From: Waddliaceae bacterium
Lineage (GTDB): Bacteria > Chlamydiota > Chlamydiia > Chlamydiales > SLFE01
Assembly: GCA_963783885.1 (NCBI GenBank)
Contig: CAWAPJ010000019.1
Location: 19,824-83,823, forward strand
Direction of reading: 5' to 3'
DNA: 64,000 nucleotides
Under the pieces are notes generated by a model, which did no database searches, was not told the DNA's origin, and saw only the letters and a program-made list of their open reading frames with translations. Position 1 is the stretch's first letter, and each line of letters begins with the position of its first letter. This document shows positions 35,522 through 57,617 of this stretch, piece by piece. Made by a program: the position numbers and the translations under genes.

Positions 35522-37021
35522 ATGCACATCATCCACGCAGCTTCTGAACTCGCCCCGATTGCCAAGATAGGCGGGCTCGGCGATGTTCTGCTCGGCCTGT
35601 CCCGCCAGCTTGCCTGGGAGGGGCATGATGTCGATATCATCCTTCCCAAATACGACTGCATGGATACCGAAAAGATCCGCGACCTGCATATCGACGAGTC
35701 TGACATTTTAGTCGAATATGATGGGCAGGTGCACCCGAATACCATTTGGCTGGGGTGGGTCGACAATCTCAAAGTCTATTTTATCGAGCCCCACCACCCC
35801 AAGCTCTTCTTTAATCGAGGCTGCATTTATGGATGCGACGACGACATCGAACGCTACATTTACTTTTCCAAAGCTTCCATGGAGCTGATGAAACAGCGAG
35901 GCCTTAAGCCTCATCTTCTCCATTTGCACGATTGGCATACAGCCCTTATGGCCCCTCTTTACAAAGACATGTATCGGGAGCTCGGAAAGAACGGACTTAA
36001 ACTTGTTTTTACGATCCATAATATGGAGTACCAGGGAAAATGTCTGACACTTGATATTGATAAAACGGGGCTTAAAGGAGAGGATTATGCCGATCCCAAA
36101 AAGCTTCTCGATGAAACAGATTCAACCCATCTCAATCTAATGAAGGGGGGTATTGTCTATTCTGAAGCGGTCACAACCGTCTCTTGTACCTATGCCAAAG
36201 AAATACAAACGCAAAAAGGTGGAAAAGGGCTCGGTAAACTTCTAAAAAAATACAAAAGCAAAGTTTATGGAATCGTCAACGGCGTCGAATACGCCTATTG
36301 GAACCCCGAAACAGACCCTTACCTTCCCGCTCACTTTTCTTCCAGGGAAAAACCGAAAACCGATAACGACTTGGCGACGATTGACCGGAAAGCGTATGTC
36401 AAGAATCTGCTGAGAGAGAAGCTTATGCTTGACGAAGCGCATCGTCCTTTAGTCGGCTGCGTCGCCCGCCTTGTTCCCCAAAAAGGGGTAGAGCTGATGC
36501 GCCACGCCCTCTTCCGTACATTGGAAAGGGGAGGGCAATTCATTCTTCTGGGAACCAGTCCTATCCCTAAAATCAATCGCGAATTTCACGAGCTGATGCA
36601 TCATTTCGCCGATCATCCCCACGCCCACCTGATTCTGAAGCACGAAGAAGAGACGGCGCATCATATTTTCGCCGCCAGCGATATGTTTATTGTTCCTTCA
36701 ATATTCGAACCCTGCGGCCTCACTCAGTTGATATCCCTTAAATATGGTACCGTTCCCATTGTTAGAAAAACAGGAGGGCTGGCCGATACGATCGTTGATG
36801 TCGACAACGGGAGGGTTCTTTTTGAGAAAAGAAACGGCTTTGTCTTTGAAAAGCCCACGCCCGAGGGGTTCAACTCAGCTTTGGACCGGGCCATCGCCTA
36901 TTGGTTTGACAAGCCGCTAATGTGGCGGAAACTCATGCTAAACGGCATGGCTATGGACTTCAGCTGGAAGGGCCCCGCCAAGCAGTATCTCGACCTTTAT
37001 GAGAAGATTCGGATGAAGTAG
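35522..37021 (+). CDS. glgA: Glycogen synthase (ADP-glucose type)
   Basis: The N-terminus is MHIIHAASELAPIAKIGGLGDV, the C-terminal region has EPCGLTQL, and the length is 499 aa. Confidence 0.92.
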   Translation: MHIIHAASELAPIAKIGGLGDVLLGLSRQLAWEGHDVDIILPKYDCMDTEKIRDLHIDESDILVEYDGQVHPNTIWLGWVDNLKVYFIEPHHPKLFFNRGCIYGCDDDIERYIYFSKASMELMKQRGLKPHLLHLHDWHTALMAPLYKDMYRELGKNGLKLVFTIHNMEYQGKCLTLDIDKTGLKGEDYADPKKLLDETDSTHLNLMKGGIVYSEAVTTVSCTYAKEIQTQKGGKGLGKLLKKYKSKVYGIVNGVEYAYWNPETDPYLPAHFSSREKPKTDNDLATIDRKAYVKNLLREKLMLDEAHRPLVGCVARLVPQKGVELMRHALFRTLERGGQFILLGTSPIPKINREFHELMHHFADHPHAHLILKHEEETAHHIFAASDMFIVPSIFEPCGLTQLISLKYGTVPIVRKTGGLADTIVDVDNGRVLFEKRNGFVFEKPTPEGFNSALDRAIAYWFDKPLMWRKLMLNGMAMDFSWKGPAKQYLDLYEKIRMK

Positions 37022-37061
37022 CAGAAGTGTGGATGTTAGACATCATTTGACTTAACAAAAA

Positions 37062-37271
37062 ATGATTAGGAGGACCCAAAATATGATTTCAGAATTTTAT
37101 ACCGTGACCTCATCTAATGATAAATGGAATTTGGAATATAAGATTATTCCAAAGATTACAAGGGATTCTCGTAATTGCACGATAGAAACAATGAAACTAA
37201 GTGCATGGTCAAATCTTAAAAAAGCAGAAAAATATGCAAAAAAAGGCAGCAAAACAACTGGGAGTCCCTAA
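37062..37271 (+). CDS. Small ORF, possibly the displaced 5' part of the next gene
   Basis: This 69-aa ORF ends 25 nt after an A7 run (37238..37244). The next ORF is open in the +1 frame across the same run. Confidence 0.3.
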   Translation: MIRRTQNMISEFYTVTSSNDKWNLEYKIIPKITRDSRNCTIETMKLSAWSNLKKAEKYAKKGSKTTGSP

Positions 37272-38121
37272 TCTGAGAAACGTAAATGATATTATTGTGA
37301 TCGCTCCTTGTGAGGATGGATATTTTTCCAGGAAGGTAATTGTTTCAGGAGACGATCAAGGAACTGTAAAAAAAGTAGAAAAGCAGACCAGGCTGCTTGG
37401 GAAAAAGCTTATAGATCACTGGAAAATTGTTAATGAACGCTCTTGCGAATATATTCAAGCTTTGGCGTTTTCAAAGAGTGACTTAGAGGAGATTAATAAC
37501 TTTATTCAGAAGAAAAGTGAAATGGAAGGATTTCTGGATCTTAAAATCAAAGGAAAGAAATTTTCTCTGTTTGTATTCGAAACGGATGCTAGCCCTTACG
37601 AGGGTGAATGGACTTATACTATACAAGTCCTTTGCCAAAATGATCCCTCTCTCAACGAATGTCAGGGAGAAGGGCCGATGTTCATCACGTCGGTTAAGGG
37701 TAAATGGCATAAACAAGTTTTGAAAAAGCTCAATGTCAGTATCAAGGAGAAATTACACAATGAAATCAACTCAATCTATAGTCAACCGTCAAAGATATGG
37801 GAGCTAGTCAAGCAACATTCCAACGAATATATTCAAGCTTTGAAGCTTTTTAAAAGTGACTTAAAAACGATCGAAGACTTTATTCAAGAAACGGAAGGAA
37901 GAAAAGGGTTTCTGGATCTTGAAATCGAAGGAAAAGAATTTTCTCTGTTAACAAACCGCATATGTGCTGTTTCTTACGGTGATGACTGGACCGATATTGT
38001 GCAAGTCGTTTGTCAAAATGATCCCTCGCTCAACACACAAATAGGAATGGGAGCGAGGCACCTCACAGTGATTCCGGATGAGTGGCATCAGAAAGTTTTA
38101 AAAAAAATAAAAGAGTCGTAA
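37234..38121 (+). CDS. Hypothetical protein made of two tandem ~110-aa repeats
   Basis: Unit 1 (about 37411..37732) and unit 2 (about 37792..38121) align at both protein and nucleotide level: EYIQAL..KSDL..I..FIQ......GFLDL.I.GK.FSL ... VCQNDPSLN ... WH.KVLKK. Confidence 0.55.
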   Translation: MQKKAAKQLGVPNLRNVNDIIVIAPCEDGYFSRKVIVSGDDQGTVKKVEKQTRLLGKKLIDHWKIVNERSCEYIQALAFSKSDLEEINNFIQKKSEMEGFLDLKIKGKKFSLFVFETDASPYEGEWTYTIQVLCQNDPSLNECQGEGPMFITSVKGKWHKQVLKKLNVSIKEKLHNEINSIYSQPSKIWELVKQHSNEYIQALKLFKSDLKTIEDFIQETEGRKGFLDLEIEGKEFSLLTNRICAVSYGDDWTDIVQVVCQNDPSLNTQIGMGARHLTVIPDEWHQKVLKKIKES

Positions 38122-38128
38122 AGGGCTT

Positions 38129-38179
38129 CTTGTATGGCGCCTTCTAATGCTGAGCGGCATGGCTATGGACGTTAGCTGA
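38129..38179 (+). pseudogene. Remnant copy of the glgA 3' region
   Basis: It translates as LVWRLLMLSGMAMDVS*, against glgA 36917..36967 LMWRKLMLNGMAMDFSW. It contains the exact 16-mer CGGCATGGCTATGGAC. Confidence 0.6.
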
Positions 38180-38180
38180 G

Positions 38181-38307
38181 GTTTAGGTAGCAATCAGGGT
38201 CTAAGCCTCGATTATCGGCAAGGGATTACCCTTGCCTTCAAATCGAGTCTACGCATCTGAATCCAACGAAAGACTTTAACAACAAGTTTAGGTAGCAATC
38301 AGGGTCT
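38181..38307. repeat. Repeat-family copy 1: 22-bp GTTTAGGTAGCAATCAGGGTCT at both ends in direct orientation, with a central hairpin
   Basis: The 22-mer lies at 38181..38202 and 38286..38307. The centre holds the GGCAAGGG-ATTA-CCCTTGCC hairpin with an extended stem CTCGATT/AATCGAG. Positions 38201..38307 are identical to 47921..48027. Confidence 0.85.
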
Positions 38308-38348
38308 TAGATCTTCTGGCGTCTTATATAAAGCAATTCGCAAGACCT

Positions 38349-47249: not shown

Positions 47250-47557
47250 ATGGCTAAAAAGTCTGCAATTGAAAAAGAAAAACGACGGGAAAGGATGGTC
47301 AAAAACGCTTGGGAAAAGCGTGCCGAGTTGAGAAAAAGAGCAAAAGACACTGAGCCTTTCAGAAGAAGAAAGGGAAGAGGCTGCGGACAAGGCTCAACAA
47401 AATGCCTCGCGACACCTCCCATGTCCGATTAAGGAATCGCTGCGCATTGACTGGCAGGTCCCGAGGATATCTTAGAAAGTTTCGTCTGTCCCGCAACTGC
47501 TTTAGGGAAATGGCCCTGGAAGGCGTCATTCCCGGTATCGCGAAAGCGAGCTGGTAG
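47250..47557 (+). pseudogene. rpsN: 30S ribosomal protein S14, interrupted by two +1 frame changes as sequenced
   Basis: Frame A reads MAKKSAIEKEKRRERMVKNAWEKRAELRKRAKDT. Frame B reads [12 protein letters not shown]. Frame C reads [54 protein letters not shown]. The span is 308 nt, which is 102 codons plus 2 nt. Confidence 0.85.
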
Positions 47558-47606
47558 AATCTAAAACTTTATACAACTGTTCCCGCTGGGATTTTTCACC
47601 GTAGAA

Positions 47607-47626
47607 CCCCCGGAAACTTCCGGGGG
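47607..47626. terminator. Perfect 9-bp GC hairpin between convergent rpsN and a small ORF
   Basis: The sequence is CCCCCGGAA-ac-TTCCGGGGG. There is no strong T-tract on either side. Confidence 0.4.
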
Positions 47627-47675
47627 AAGTCTGAGAGTTTCAGGCCAGTGATTTCTAAAGATTGAAAATTTAATT

Positions 47676-47864
47676 TTACTCACTTTGATCTAAGTTCTTT
47701 ATATTCAATTCGAATCTATACTCGTTGCTAGATTCATAACATTTGAAATCATATCGAGTGAATAACTCTAGTTTTTTCAGTTCTTTTTCAATTTTTTCTG
47801 AATTATTATCAGAATAATGAAAACTCTGGAGAGTAATTTTACTGTCAAATAAAATTTTAGGCAC
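47676..47864 (-). CDS. Small hypothetical ORF (62 aa, non-ATG start)
   Basis: It is AT-rich and has no motif. It lies next to repeat-family copy 2. Confidence 0.25.
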   Translation of the reverse strand: MPKILFDSKITLQSFHYSDNNSEKIEKELKKLELFTRYDFKCYESSNEYRFELNIKNLDQSE

Positions 47865-47920
47865 CTTTTTTAGAGATTTTAAAGAATCTAAGTATGAGTT
47901 AAAACGAAAATCCGCATCTG

Positions 47921-48027
47921 CTAAGCCTCGATTATCGGCAAGGGATTACCCTTGCCTTCAAATCGAGTCTACGCATCTGAATCCAACGAAAGACTTTAAC
48001 AACAAGTTTAGGTAGCAATCAGGGTCT
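47921..48027. repeat. Repeat-family copy 2 (107 bp identical to 38201..38307)
   Basis: CTAAGCCTCGATTATCGGCAAGGGATTACCCTTGCCTTCAAATCGAGTCTACGCATCTGAATCCAACGAAAGACTTTAACAACAAGTTTAGGTAGCAATCAGGGTCT is identical at both loci by eye. Confidence 0.9.
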
Positions 48028-48122
48028 AGTAATACCTTGAATGATCATAATAATTTTCGGAAACGCATGCGGGAACAATTTATAATCAAATTTTTTTTTA
48101 GATTGCGCTGAAGCGGAAGCGA

Positions 48123-48580
48123 TTATAAACCAAGCGTTTCTTTAAGTTCTGCAATTGTCTTTGATTTTTTTCCATTCGGTCATGGTCTCGTTCCAGACAT
48201 AGGTCTCTTCGGAAATCTGGTCCTTTTCGCTGAATTTTTTGAGTTCTGACAATAGTATGGGGGCCATGCTGCTTGCGGGCCTCGTCTAGATAGTACCAGT
48301 CATACTGATCAAAGGGAGAGTGGGGAGATACGCGGATGGCTTCGGTTTCTATGATCTTTGGTTTTTCCTCGGTTTTCTCCTGTGATTCGAATGAAGGCAT
48401 CAGAAACAAGGCAATCAGCGGGAAGGGGCCGAAAAAGACTCCCAGAAAGAACCAGAGATAAGGGTTTCTGCCCCTTTTTTGAGCGAAATAAGAGTTTACC
48501 CATCCCCAGAAAACGATAAAAAATAATGTGATAAATTCCATAAATAATGGTATAATAACAGTTACCTGTATAGGAATCAA
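48123..48580 (-). pseudogene. Membrane protein with a C-terminal GYF_2-like domain, two +1 frame changes as sequenced
   Basis: The ORF-track frame gives TM helices and then ...DQYDWYYLDEARKQHGP. The next frame gives ILLSELKKFSEKDQISEETYVWNETMTEWKKIKDN, and a third gives AELKETLGL*. The shifts are at the G5 run 48259..48263 and at AATT 48153..48156. Confidence 0.65.
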
Positions 48581-49046: not shown

Positions 49047-49088
49047 ACGAGTGGACAGCTTTACTTTTCGCCTCTTTCGCCGACCTTT

Positions 49089-49247
49089 GGCCCTGATTGC
49101 TACCTAAACCTCAGCTAGAGCTTACACGAGTACACCATCTACTGCCTGTAGCGACTTGGCAAGGGATTACCCTTGCCGTCGACGCTACAGTTGTATCTGG
49201 CGCACTCGTGTAAGCTCTAGCTGAGGTTTAGGTAGCAATCAGGGTCT
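49089..49247. repeat. Repeat-family copy 3: 159-bp near-perfect palindrome
   Basis: The left arm 49091..49131 is the exact reverse complement of the right arm 49204..49244, and includes the 22-mer terminus. The centre holds CTGTAGCG..GGCAAGGG-ATTA-CCCTTGCC..CGCTACAG. Confidence 0.9.
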
Positions 49248-49440
49248 TTGCCATTCGACTTAAAATTCCCTGCTCTTATAGAAAATGTGAATTAGCGTCG
49301 ATTGGCAAATCATAAGCAAAAAAAGCTCAAAAATCGGTTTTTCCTGAGTTTTGCAATTCCCTCTAAACGATTCAGCTTGCAAATAAATAGCCTACACATT
49401 AATATTTCATCTTTAAATGCCTAAAAAATGGGCAGCTGAT

Positions 49441-56303: not shown

Positions 56304-57617
56304 GTGAATTTATCAGGCATTTTTAACAAGATAACCCGCAAGAGAGTTTTGGTGATCGGCGATTTTATGCTGGACGCCTACACGATAGGACAGGCAAAAC
56401 GCATTTCTCCGGAGGCACCGGTAGCTGTTGTCAAGGTGGAAAGGACAGAAGAGCGGCCGGGCGGTGCGGGCAATGTCGCCTTGAATCTCAAATCTCTTGG
56501 CCTTGATGTTGCGGCTATCGGGCGGCTGGGAGCCGACGACTCGGGAAAGCGGCTTGCCGCATCGCTTAAGAGCGAAGGGATCCTCATGGAGGGATGCGCC
56601 ATCCAGGGCTCCTATAACACCCCGGTTAAAAACCGCGTTATCGCTTCAAATCAGCAAATCGTCCGAATTGATTATGAAGAAACAACTTCCCTTCCCGAAC
56701 AGTTGGAACAGCAGGTGATTGAAGCTCTGCCAAAACTTCTCGAAGAGGTTAGTGCAGTGGCCATTTCCGATTATGGCAAAGGGTTCTTAACAGACACGCT
56801 TCTTGCCGCATTGATCAAACTTGCCCGCAAAAACTCCATTCCCGTGATTACAGATCCCAAGGGAGCTGATTTTTCCAAATATGCCGGGTCGACGCTGATC
56901 AAACCAAATTTCGCTGAAGCGGCTGCCGTTTCAGGGCTGGATGCAAACGCTGATTTGGACCTGATCGCTCAAAGCGTATTAAATCGGTCGATGTGCGATA
57001 GGCTGATCATCACAAGATCTGAAAAGGGGCTTTCGGCTTTCGATAAAAAGGGGAATCGGGAAGATTTTCCAGTCAAAATCCGCAAGGTCAAAGATGTGAC
57101 CGGCGCCGGTGATACAGTTCTGGCAATACTCACATTCGCTCTTGCTAACGGCCTACCGATACCCGCCGCCTGCCGGCTGGCCAACATTGCCGCCGGGCTG
57201 GCAGTAGAAGAGCTCGGCTGCGCGAGGATTACTCTGCAGGCTCTCGCGGAAAGGCTTTTGGAAGACGATGTCGAAAACAAAGTTTTCGACGATCAGCATC
57301 TATATGCTCTTCAAGAGGTGCTGAAAGGTCGGGATGTGGTTTTGATGGGCATCGAAGAAAATACAAAGGTGTCGATCGATTTATTAAAAGCGATCAGGAC
57401 ATGCAAGGAAAGCGGCCGAGACCTGATCCTCTATTTGCGCGATCAGAAACCGTGCAGGGACTTGATTCATATTCTGACAGGTTTAAAAGAGGTAGACTAT
57501 CTCATCCATCATGGAGAGAGCTTCCGCAAGCTCTGCCGTATGATTCATCCCGCAAAGGTTTACATTTTTGGAGAAGGAAAACTGAGCACAATCGAAGAGC
57601 CCGCGTTTCTTATGTAG
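56304..57617 (+). CDS. hldE: HldE-like protein: D-beta-D-heptose 7-phosphate kinase domain plus a degenerate adenylyltransferase-like domain
   Basis: Domain I shows VLVIGDFMLDAY...RISPEAPVAV...ERPGGAGNVALNL and VTGAGDT. Domain II aligns with HldE domain II (VVLMG.., DRLIVAVNSD~RDLILYLRD, EAVDWVV~KEVDYLI), but GVFDILHAGH is replaced by GIEENTKVSI. Confidence 0.75.
   Translation: MNLSGIFNKITRKRVLVIGDFMLDAYTIGQAKRISPEAPVAVVKVERTEERPGGAGNVALNLKSLGLDVAAIGRLGADDSGKRLAASLKSEGILMEGCAIQGSYNTPVKNRVIASNQQIVRIDYEETTSLPEQLEQQVIEALPKLLEEVSAVAISDYGKGFLTDTLLAALIKLARKNSIPVITDPKGADFSKYAGSTLIKPNFAEAAAVSGLDANADLDLIAQSVLNRSMCDRLIITRSEKGLSAFDKKGNREDFPVKIRKVKDVTGAGDTVLAILTFALANGLPIPAACRLANIAAGLAVEELGCARITLQALAERLLEDDVENKVFDDQHLYALQEVLKGRDVVLMGIEENTKVSIDLLKAIRTCKESGRDLILYLRDQKPCRDLIHILTGLKEVDYLIHHGESFRKLCRMIHPAKVYIFGEGKLSTIEEPAFLM

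Follow-up and report, generated by a model that had tools for sequence, protein, structure and literature searches.

The Correia elements of Neisseria and the RUP elements of Streptococcus pneumoniae are TIR-bounded, intergenic and hairpin-forming, and are generally regarded as mobilised in trans and as influencing nearby transcripts; they have other parental IS families than the elements described here, and TA target sites. Our elements are similar to them in general features only, and no sequence relationship is expected. Members of the IS982 family are described with 5'-AC ends, and direct repeats of 0-10 bp are found among the listed members (PMC7335449). The same review lists the IS982 elements ISPasp1-3 for Parachlamydia and does not mention subterminal palindromes (PMC7335449). 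MITECca01/02 of Cardinium are IS982-derived MITEs; they are short and non-autonomous, represent ~240-bp internal-deletion derivatives, and keep the parental IS982 TIRs beside eroded IS copies in an intracellular bacterium (PMC9769881). IS982-derived MITEs are thus already described, and the chlamydial element reported below is not a new class. A full-text literature search returned no report of MITEs in Chlamydiae.

The window, which is the whole 64-kb stretch of DNA analysed, contains three loci (copies A, B and C) that are very probably non-autonomous derivatives of one IS982-family insertion sequence (IS) circulating in environmental Chlamydiae (Waddliaceae-like). We favour this reading because of their identity to an intact IS, the family of its transposase, the TIRs, the target logo, the matching duplications and the absence of the elements from relatives.

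The 22-mer GTTTAGGTAGCAATCAGGGTCT is exact at 38181, 38286, 48006 and 49226, in all cases on the + strand. A single inverted copy is located at 49088-49109 with two mismatches, and 19 nt of it are exact (49091-49109). The five positions, four direct and one inverted, agree with the earlier note on this DNA. Matches to the 22-mer are found in none of 100 shuffled sequences. The 107-nt block shared by 38201-38307 and 47921-48027 is 100% identical, as had been claimed, and the homology of copy B to the parent IS reaches 6 nt further left, to 47915. The hairpin GGCAAGGG-ATTA-CCCTTGCC has three occurrences in the window, and GGCAAGGGATTACCCTTGCC is present at 38217, 47937 and 49158, with at least three matches in 0/100 shuffles. 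The same hairpin had been assigned to all three copies; the core indeed occurs three times, but the third locus (49090-49245) is more than an 8-bp hairpin, forming a 156-bp near-perfect palindrome with a fold of -122.4 kcal/mol (z = -17.3). Copy A is flanked by low-GC orphan ORFs, copy B lies in the 540-nt spacer between the S14 and GYF-domain genes (38-182 nt in relatives), and copy C is located 190 nt upstream of tRNA-Gln. These surroundings are in line with the earlier description of each copy at the edge of AT-rich orphan DNA or next to a tRNA. Neither an nhmmer profile nor word-7 blastn revealed further copies in the window beyond these three loci.

The whole parent element is found in the metagenome contig L069 (547-1691). 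It is 1145 bp long, is bounded by perfect 20/20 TIRs (ACCCTGATTGCTACCTAAAC ... GTTTAGGTAGCAATCAGGGT, that is, ACCCTG.../...CAGGGT, 1145 bp apart), and encodes an intact 279-aa ORF, a DDE transposase. A ~115-nt hairpin with a GGCAAGGG-N4-CCCTTGCC core is located just inside each TIR. The transposase ORF scores 156.8 bits against the NCBIfam model NF033520 ('IS982 family transposase'; curated cut-off 130 bits), the second-best model being IS5_3 with 45 bits, and the transposase consensus rebuilt from fragments of the Chlamydiae MAG OFTM232 scores 157.6 bits on NF033520. In addition, full-length comparison of the L069 transposase with annotated plasmid-borne IS982 transposases gives 33-37% identity. 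The TIR begins with 5'-AC, an end assignment that follows from the flank logo, which sets the boundary after T(+1), and it is similar to annotated IS982 TIRs such as ACCCAAGTTGCTACC.

Judged from its sequence, the L069 element agrees with the IS982 family in every feature tested, namely the transposase, the TIRs and the short target repeats. It resembles the family in its length of about 1 kb, its single DDE transposase, its 5'-AC TIRs and a ACCCnnnTTGCTACC-like core. In the annotated IS982 elements on Sulfurospirillum and Pseudanabaena plasmids (L074, 318-343/1244-1269; L075, 316-341/1219-1244), a ACCCnnnTTGCTACC-like TIR core also resembles the chlamydial TIR, which suggests that this core may be a transposase-binding motif conserved across distant hosts. 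The two annotated IS982 members inspected are ~930-950 bp long and have no hairpins, whereas the chlamydial IS, at 1145 bp, is about 200 bp longer because of the ~115-nt hairpin inside each TIR. ISPasp1 of Parachlamydia has a 5-bp direct repeat according to the review (PMC7335449), as found here, ISPasp1-3 being compared by listing and not by sequence. Searches of the 64-kb window with tblastn/blastn recovered no transposase of the IS982-like family. A weak tblastn match at 56454-56792 is located inside a 437-aa ORF (56304..57617) and was treated as chance; from its sequence alone, we take this ORF to resemble a sugar kinase.

The flank logo, built from 79 distinct ends, reads T(77) as the last terminal position, followed by C(73) T(63) N A(56) G(72) and then noise. 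The target C and G are conserved equally, therefore a 20-bp TIR ending in T next to a palindromic target CTNAG is the simplest reading. The 22-mer can accordingly be read as the 20-bp IS982-family TIR (ACCCTGATTGCTACCTAAAC) plus the first two target bases. The repeat unit described in the earlier note should be trimmed to this TIR, which ends in ...CAGGGT, the final CT belonging to the target CTNAG. Identical pentamers flank seven complete small elements (CTGGG, CTAAG, CTTAG, CTATG, CTTAG, CTTAG and, in the window, CTTTG), and the flanks of L067 and L069 each mismatch at one of the five positions. Insertion at CTNAG with a 5-bp duplication appears most likely from these flanks; a duplication of 3 bp (TNA), with each TIR extended by one base, is a formally admissible alternative.

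Table 1 Positions of the IS-derived features in the window (a dot marks a feature with no strand).
Feature	Position	Strand	Description
Copy A part 1, right-end stub	38173..38200	+	28 nt: 8 subterminal nt TAGCTGAG + 20-bp TIR GTTTAGGTAGCAATCAGGGT
Copy A part 1, TIR	38181-38200		
CTAAG junction	38201..38205	.	target pentamer inside the left-end hairpin; the right-end stub abuts there
Copy A part 2, IS left end	38201..38305	-	terminal 105 nt; transposase orientation on the - strand
Copy A part 2, inner hairpin core	38217-38236		
Copy A part 2, TIR	38286-38305		
Copy A flank CTTAG	38306..38310	.	fits the target consensus; would be one target-duplication copy
Copy B, IS left end	47915..48025	-	terminal 111 nt
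Copy B, core hairpin	47937-47956		
Copy B, TIR	48006-48025		
Copy C, left target duplication CTTTG	49085..49089	.	
Copy C, fold-back MITE of the IS right end	49090..49245	+	complete, 156 bp
Copy C, left TIR	49090-49109		tip G instead of A, 19/20
Copy C, core hairpin	49158-49177		
Copy C, right TIR	49226-49245		20/20
Copy C, right target duplication CTTTG	49246..49250	.	

Copy A is composed of two parts. The right-end stub corresponds to the end of the parent element, with 96.6% identity (blastn) between the last 29 nt of the L069 IS and window positions 38173-38201. The junction of TAGCTGAG with the TIR is also present in copy C, and a one-base variant, TAGCTAAG, is found in L069/L071. The left-end part (38201-38305) is 100% identical to positions 1-105 of the L069 IS (nhmmer E = 1.7e-32). 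The two TIRs of copy A are in direct, not inverted, orientation, and the left breakpoint falls in a relic of the glgA 3' end. Comparable nesting is observed in L024, again at a CTAAG that lies inside the element, within the hairpin stem. Copy B (47915-48025) is 100% identical to positions 1-111 of the L069 IS and is followed by CTAGT; no second TIR is found near it, with up to 5 mismatches allowed. In copy C, positions 49110-49246 align at 97% identity with the final 137 nt of the L069 IS, and its arms of 52 nt are 92% complementary.

By these features, copy C can be classed as a true MITE, having two TIRs, a 5-bp duplication and no coding capacity. Copies A and B are identified as IS remnants (solo left ends) and not as MITEs, because B has one TIR only and the two TIRs of A are not inverted. 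The MITE label of the earlier note therefore suits the copy at 49090-49245 only, each of the left-end fragments of A and B (105 and 111 nt) having a single TIR. Gene conversion, which had been offered for the identity of A and B, is unneeded, since both are unmutated copies of the same IS end. Copy C shares with MITECca01/02 the small size and the retained parental TIRs, but it is a 156-bp, wholly palindromic fold-back of one IS end in another phylum.

The structures suggest how the copies may have formed. At copy A, a second copy would have been inserted into the internal CTAAG of a solo left end, or the element would have integrated into itself, and the second copy would later have been lost except for 28 nt. 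For copy B, the remainder of the IS has been deleted, leaving the solo left end behind. The fold-back MITE was probably born by hairpin-primed copying of the adjacent TIR; analogous fold-back MITEs are present in other lineages (L046 and L067). Copy C could still move if transposase were supplied in trans. We infer both this trans-mobilisation and the order of events at copy A.

The subterminal hairpins are part of the IS. In the window and about 400 kb of fetched loci, every one of the 38 core hairpins is located within 200 nt of a TIR, so the hairpin belongs to the IS and is not a free element, and the core was ruled out as an independent mobile unit. In L069, L015, L052 and L061, cores lie between the TIR and the transposase gene. 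For ten right-end modules from four lineages, 43 consensus pairs are predicted, with 96.5% of cells paired. Compensatory double changes affect 17 pairs, compared with 6.5±1.8 in column shuffles (0/500 as high) and 1-3 in slid controls, bearing in mind that, in a DNA palindrome, fold-back can regenerate complementary arms and so produce covariation where no selection acts. The internal-loop motifs CCATCTACTGCCTG / CAGTTGTATCTG are fixed while the stems covary. Left- and right-end modules have the core and the loops in common, and their outer stems are unrelated.

The two strands of the hairpins are not equivalent. Across 11 modules, 42 G·U pairs are formed on the strand read inward from the TIR versus 4 on the other strand, counts that are not independent across related copies. 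On the inward strand the stems are continuous, their imperfections are G·U, and tandem G·A forms the first internal loop, whereas the same positions on the outward strand give A·C and pyrimidine mismatches. The inward strand is more stable by 12-22 kcal/mol, so that the preference switches strands between one IS end and the other. A replication- or transcription-linked mutation bias would not give such a mirrored pattern, which points to selection on a single-stranded form. Hairpin-less ends exist as well, namely the OFTM232 'type 3' left ends and the L027 right end, so the hairpin is dispensable. It is possible, though we consider it unlikely, that the hairpins are functional single-stranded structures (RNA or the non-transferred DNA strand) selected in the inward direction, which might regulate or insulate the IS and might seed fold-back MITEs. 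Their likeliest role would be to block or destabilise transcripts reading into the element.

The covariation, the conserved loop motifs, the strand-biased G·U pairs and the highly stable structure (z = -10 to -17) could also be taken as marks of an independent family of small structured RNA genes, in which the 22-mer would be part of the RNA, a promoter or a terminator. We regard this as very unlikely, given that all 38 cores are within 200 nt of a TIR and some of them are placed between the TIR and the transposase gene. Consensus scans predict neither a T-tail terminator nor a sigma-70 promoter at the hairpins, and the reversal of the favoured strand between the two IS ends suits an end-related role better than a gene. 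Rfam 15 detects only two tRNAs in the window, and its only match in L069 is a plant miRNA precursor with 35.5 bits versus a gathering score of 79, which is spurious. The proposal of a small structured RNA gene family is thus not supported as regards an independent family, while the covariation and the wobble bias leave room for a single-strand function. In L018 (3150-3275), the left-end hairpin has the same outer arms as in L061, L010 and L043, but its asymmetric core lies in the opposite orientation; this flip presumably results from recombination or template switching between the arms.

Outside the window, the element is abundant. Species-representative genomes were scanned with the 19-mer common to all five window copies, yielding 63 loci, 57 of them from the single Chlamydiae MAG OFTM232 (JAJFLY01), which carries about 69 TIR copies. 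The earlier note had made its claim depend on further copies elsewhere, and many are found. A literature search on OFTM232 gave nothing relevant. The sequences upstream of the 19-mer fall into few classes. Class 1 runs into the start of the transposase gene, class 2 trails the stop codon of the same gene across the ~115-nt hairpin, and class 3 is a variant of class 1 with a ~118-nt hairpin between the terminus and the gene. A relative's copy, L045, consists of a left end and a pseudogene of the transposase that is truncated. Deletion derivatives and nested insertions account for many of the internal OFTM232 copies (L019, L038, L024 and L050). In L027 (1-100; CAZOEM010000620.1), the transposase C-terminus and the TIR are found without the right-end hairpin (…CTCAGCTAGAGCT/AAG/TIR); this contig is binned as a Halobacteria archaeon and is probably a chlamydial contig misbinned into an archaeal MAG.

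Many of the 19-mer copies are located ~120 nt from a contig end and face away from it, the signature of a high-copy repeat breaking short-read assembly. Dozens of OFTM232 contigs (L001-L063) end about 120 nt inside the IS, which is thus a main cause of fragmentation of this assembly. Since the IS breaks contigs ~120 nt inside its ends in this short-read MAG, full-length copies could be lost, and the repeats in the window might be artefacts produced when IS copies were collapsed or misjoined during assembly. This explanation is highly improbable. Every copy in the window has unique flanks on both sides, in a region collinear with two related assemblies (L064 and L073), and similar truncated or fold-back elements occur in independent assemblies (L034, L046, L050, L056, L057 and L067). 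Moreover, in copy A a TIR tip meets an internal CTAAG, a junction to be expected from transposition and not from a k-mer misjoin. The copies are therefore not the contig-end artefacts or assembly duplications against which the earlier note had cautioned.

The genes of the window include glgA and those for a CDP-alcohol phosphatidyltransferase, thioredoxin, an alanine symporter, pcrA/uvrD, rnpA, L36 and S14, together with the GYF-domain gene (48098-48580, - strand), Asp23, tRNA-Gln, prs, L25 and pth, as in any ordinary stretch of bacterial chromosome. The JGI metagenome contig L064, whose Asp23 is 82% identical, and the Waddliaceae MAG L073, whose Asp23 belongs to the same 90% cluster, share this gene order, which places the source of the window among the environmental chlamydiae. 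Elements B and C are absent from the corresponding spacers of both relatives. The S14-GYF spacer measures 540 nt in the window, 182 nt in L064 and 38 nt in L073, and the Asp23-tRNA-Gln spacer is without the MITE in both L064 and L073. Aligning L064 and L073 recovered no precise empty site, the spacers being non-homologous there. We infer insertion from absence and not from a before/after pair, because the B and C spacers of the relatives are non-homologous. An apparent match of ATCCGCATCTGC to L064 was dropped, as the alignment did not uphold it. Recent mobility, as already proposed, is supported by the absence of B and C in two syntenic relatives and by the 100% identity of the fragments to an IS in an unrelated metagenome. 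Together with the many near-identical OFTM232 ends, these comparisons are indirect indications of recent activity.

The arrangement of the repeats could alternatively reflect an 11-kb island next to tRNA-Gln, for which the direct 30-nt repeats 38173-38202 and 49218-49247 would be attL/attR. The 35 nt around the two repeats are 94% identical, direct and 11 kb apart, and one repeat is located 190 nt from tRNA-Gln. However, the repeat does not overlap the tRNA, its sequence is the terminus of a transposase-bearing IS, and the gene order is kept in two relatives without the repeats. The interval is occupied by housekeeping genes (pgsA-like, thioredoxin, alanine symporter, pcrA/uvrD, rnpA, L36, S14 and Asp23), and domain annotation reveals no integrase domain within it. 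An att origin is thus extremely improbable, and the recombination site suggested in the earlier note is not supported, the DNA between the copies being conserved housekeeping synteny without an integrase. We give practically no credence to REP/BIME palindromes moved by a RAYT (Y1) transposase: the repeats are intergenic, palindromic and contain GTAG, but they have TIRs and target-site duplications, their ends bound a DDE transposase scoring above the IS982 threshold, and the elements are 105-156 nt long, not 20-40 nt.

Several further observations concern the neighbourhood of the IS982-derived copies. The spacers 49047-49400 and 47558-48097 are non-homologous to those of L073 and L064 despite conserved flanking genes, and a tRNA-Gln promoter-like TTGCAAATAAAT...TAATAT box is conserved between the window and both relatives. 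The S14 gene (47250-47557) matches the 101-aa S14 of L064 only if the frame is changed twice in a span of about 40 nt, and is either a pseudogene or affected by a sequencing error. Close to copy A, an in-frame relic of the glgA 3' end (38125-38178) follows immediately on the stop codon of a low-GC orphan ORF (37201-38121), and the IS stub truncates this relic; it reads GLLVWRLLMLSGMAMDVS versus PLMWRKLMLNGMAMDFSW in the intact glgA (35522-37021). About 1.1 kb of orphan DNA (window 37022-38178) separates the working glgA from the older glgA end, and this arrangement has the look of a cassette that was acquired along with a new 3' end replacing the old one. The orphan ORF contains an internal tandem duplication (37420-38034) with a period of 378 nt (126 codons) and pieces 71-89% identical, and has no Pfam match.

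For annotation, our analysis names and delimits a repeat that had not been annotated, and it identifies three spacers of the window as recently remodelled. The break-up of short-read assemblies of related chlamydial MAGs at the IS sequence is explained as well. In a family whose mechanism is not worked out, the hairpins, strand-biased in mirror image at the two ends, represent a testable oddity. For transposon biology the value is modest: our analysis adds to the IS982 family a chlamydial lineage that has CTNAG as its target and includes solo ends as well as fold-back MITEs.
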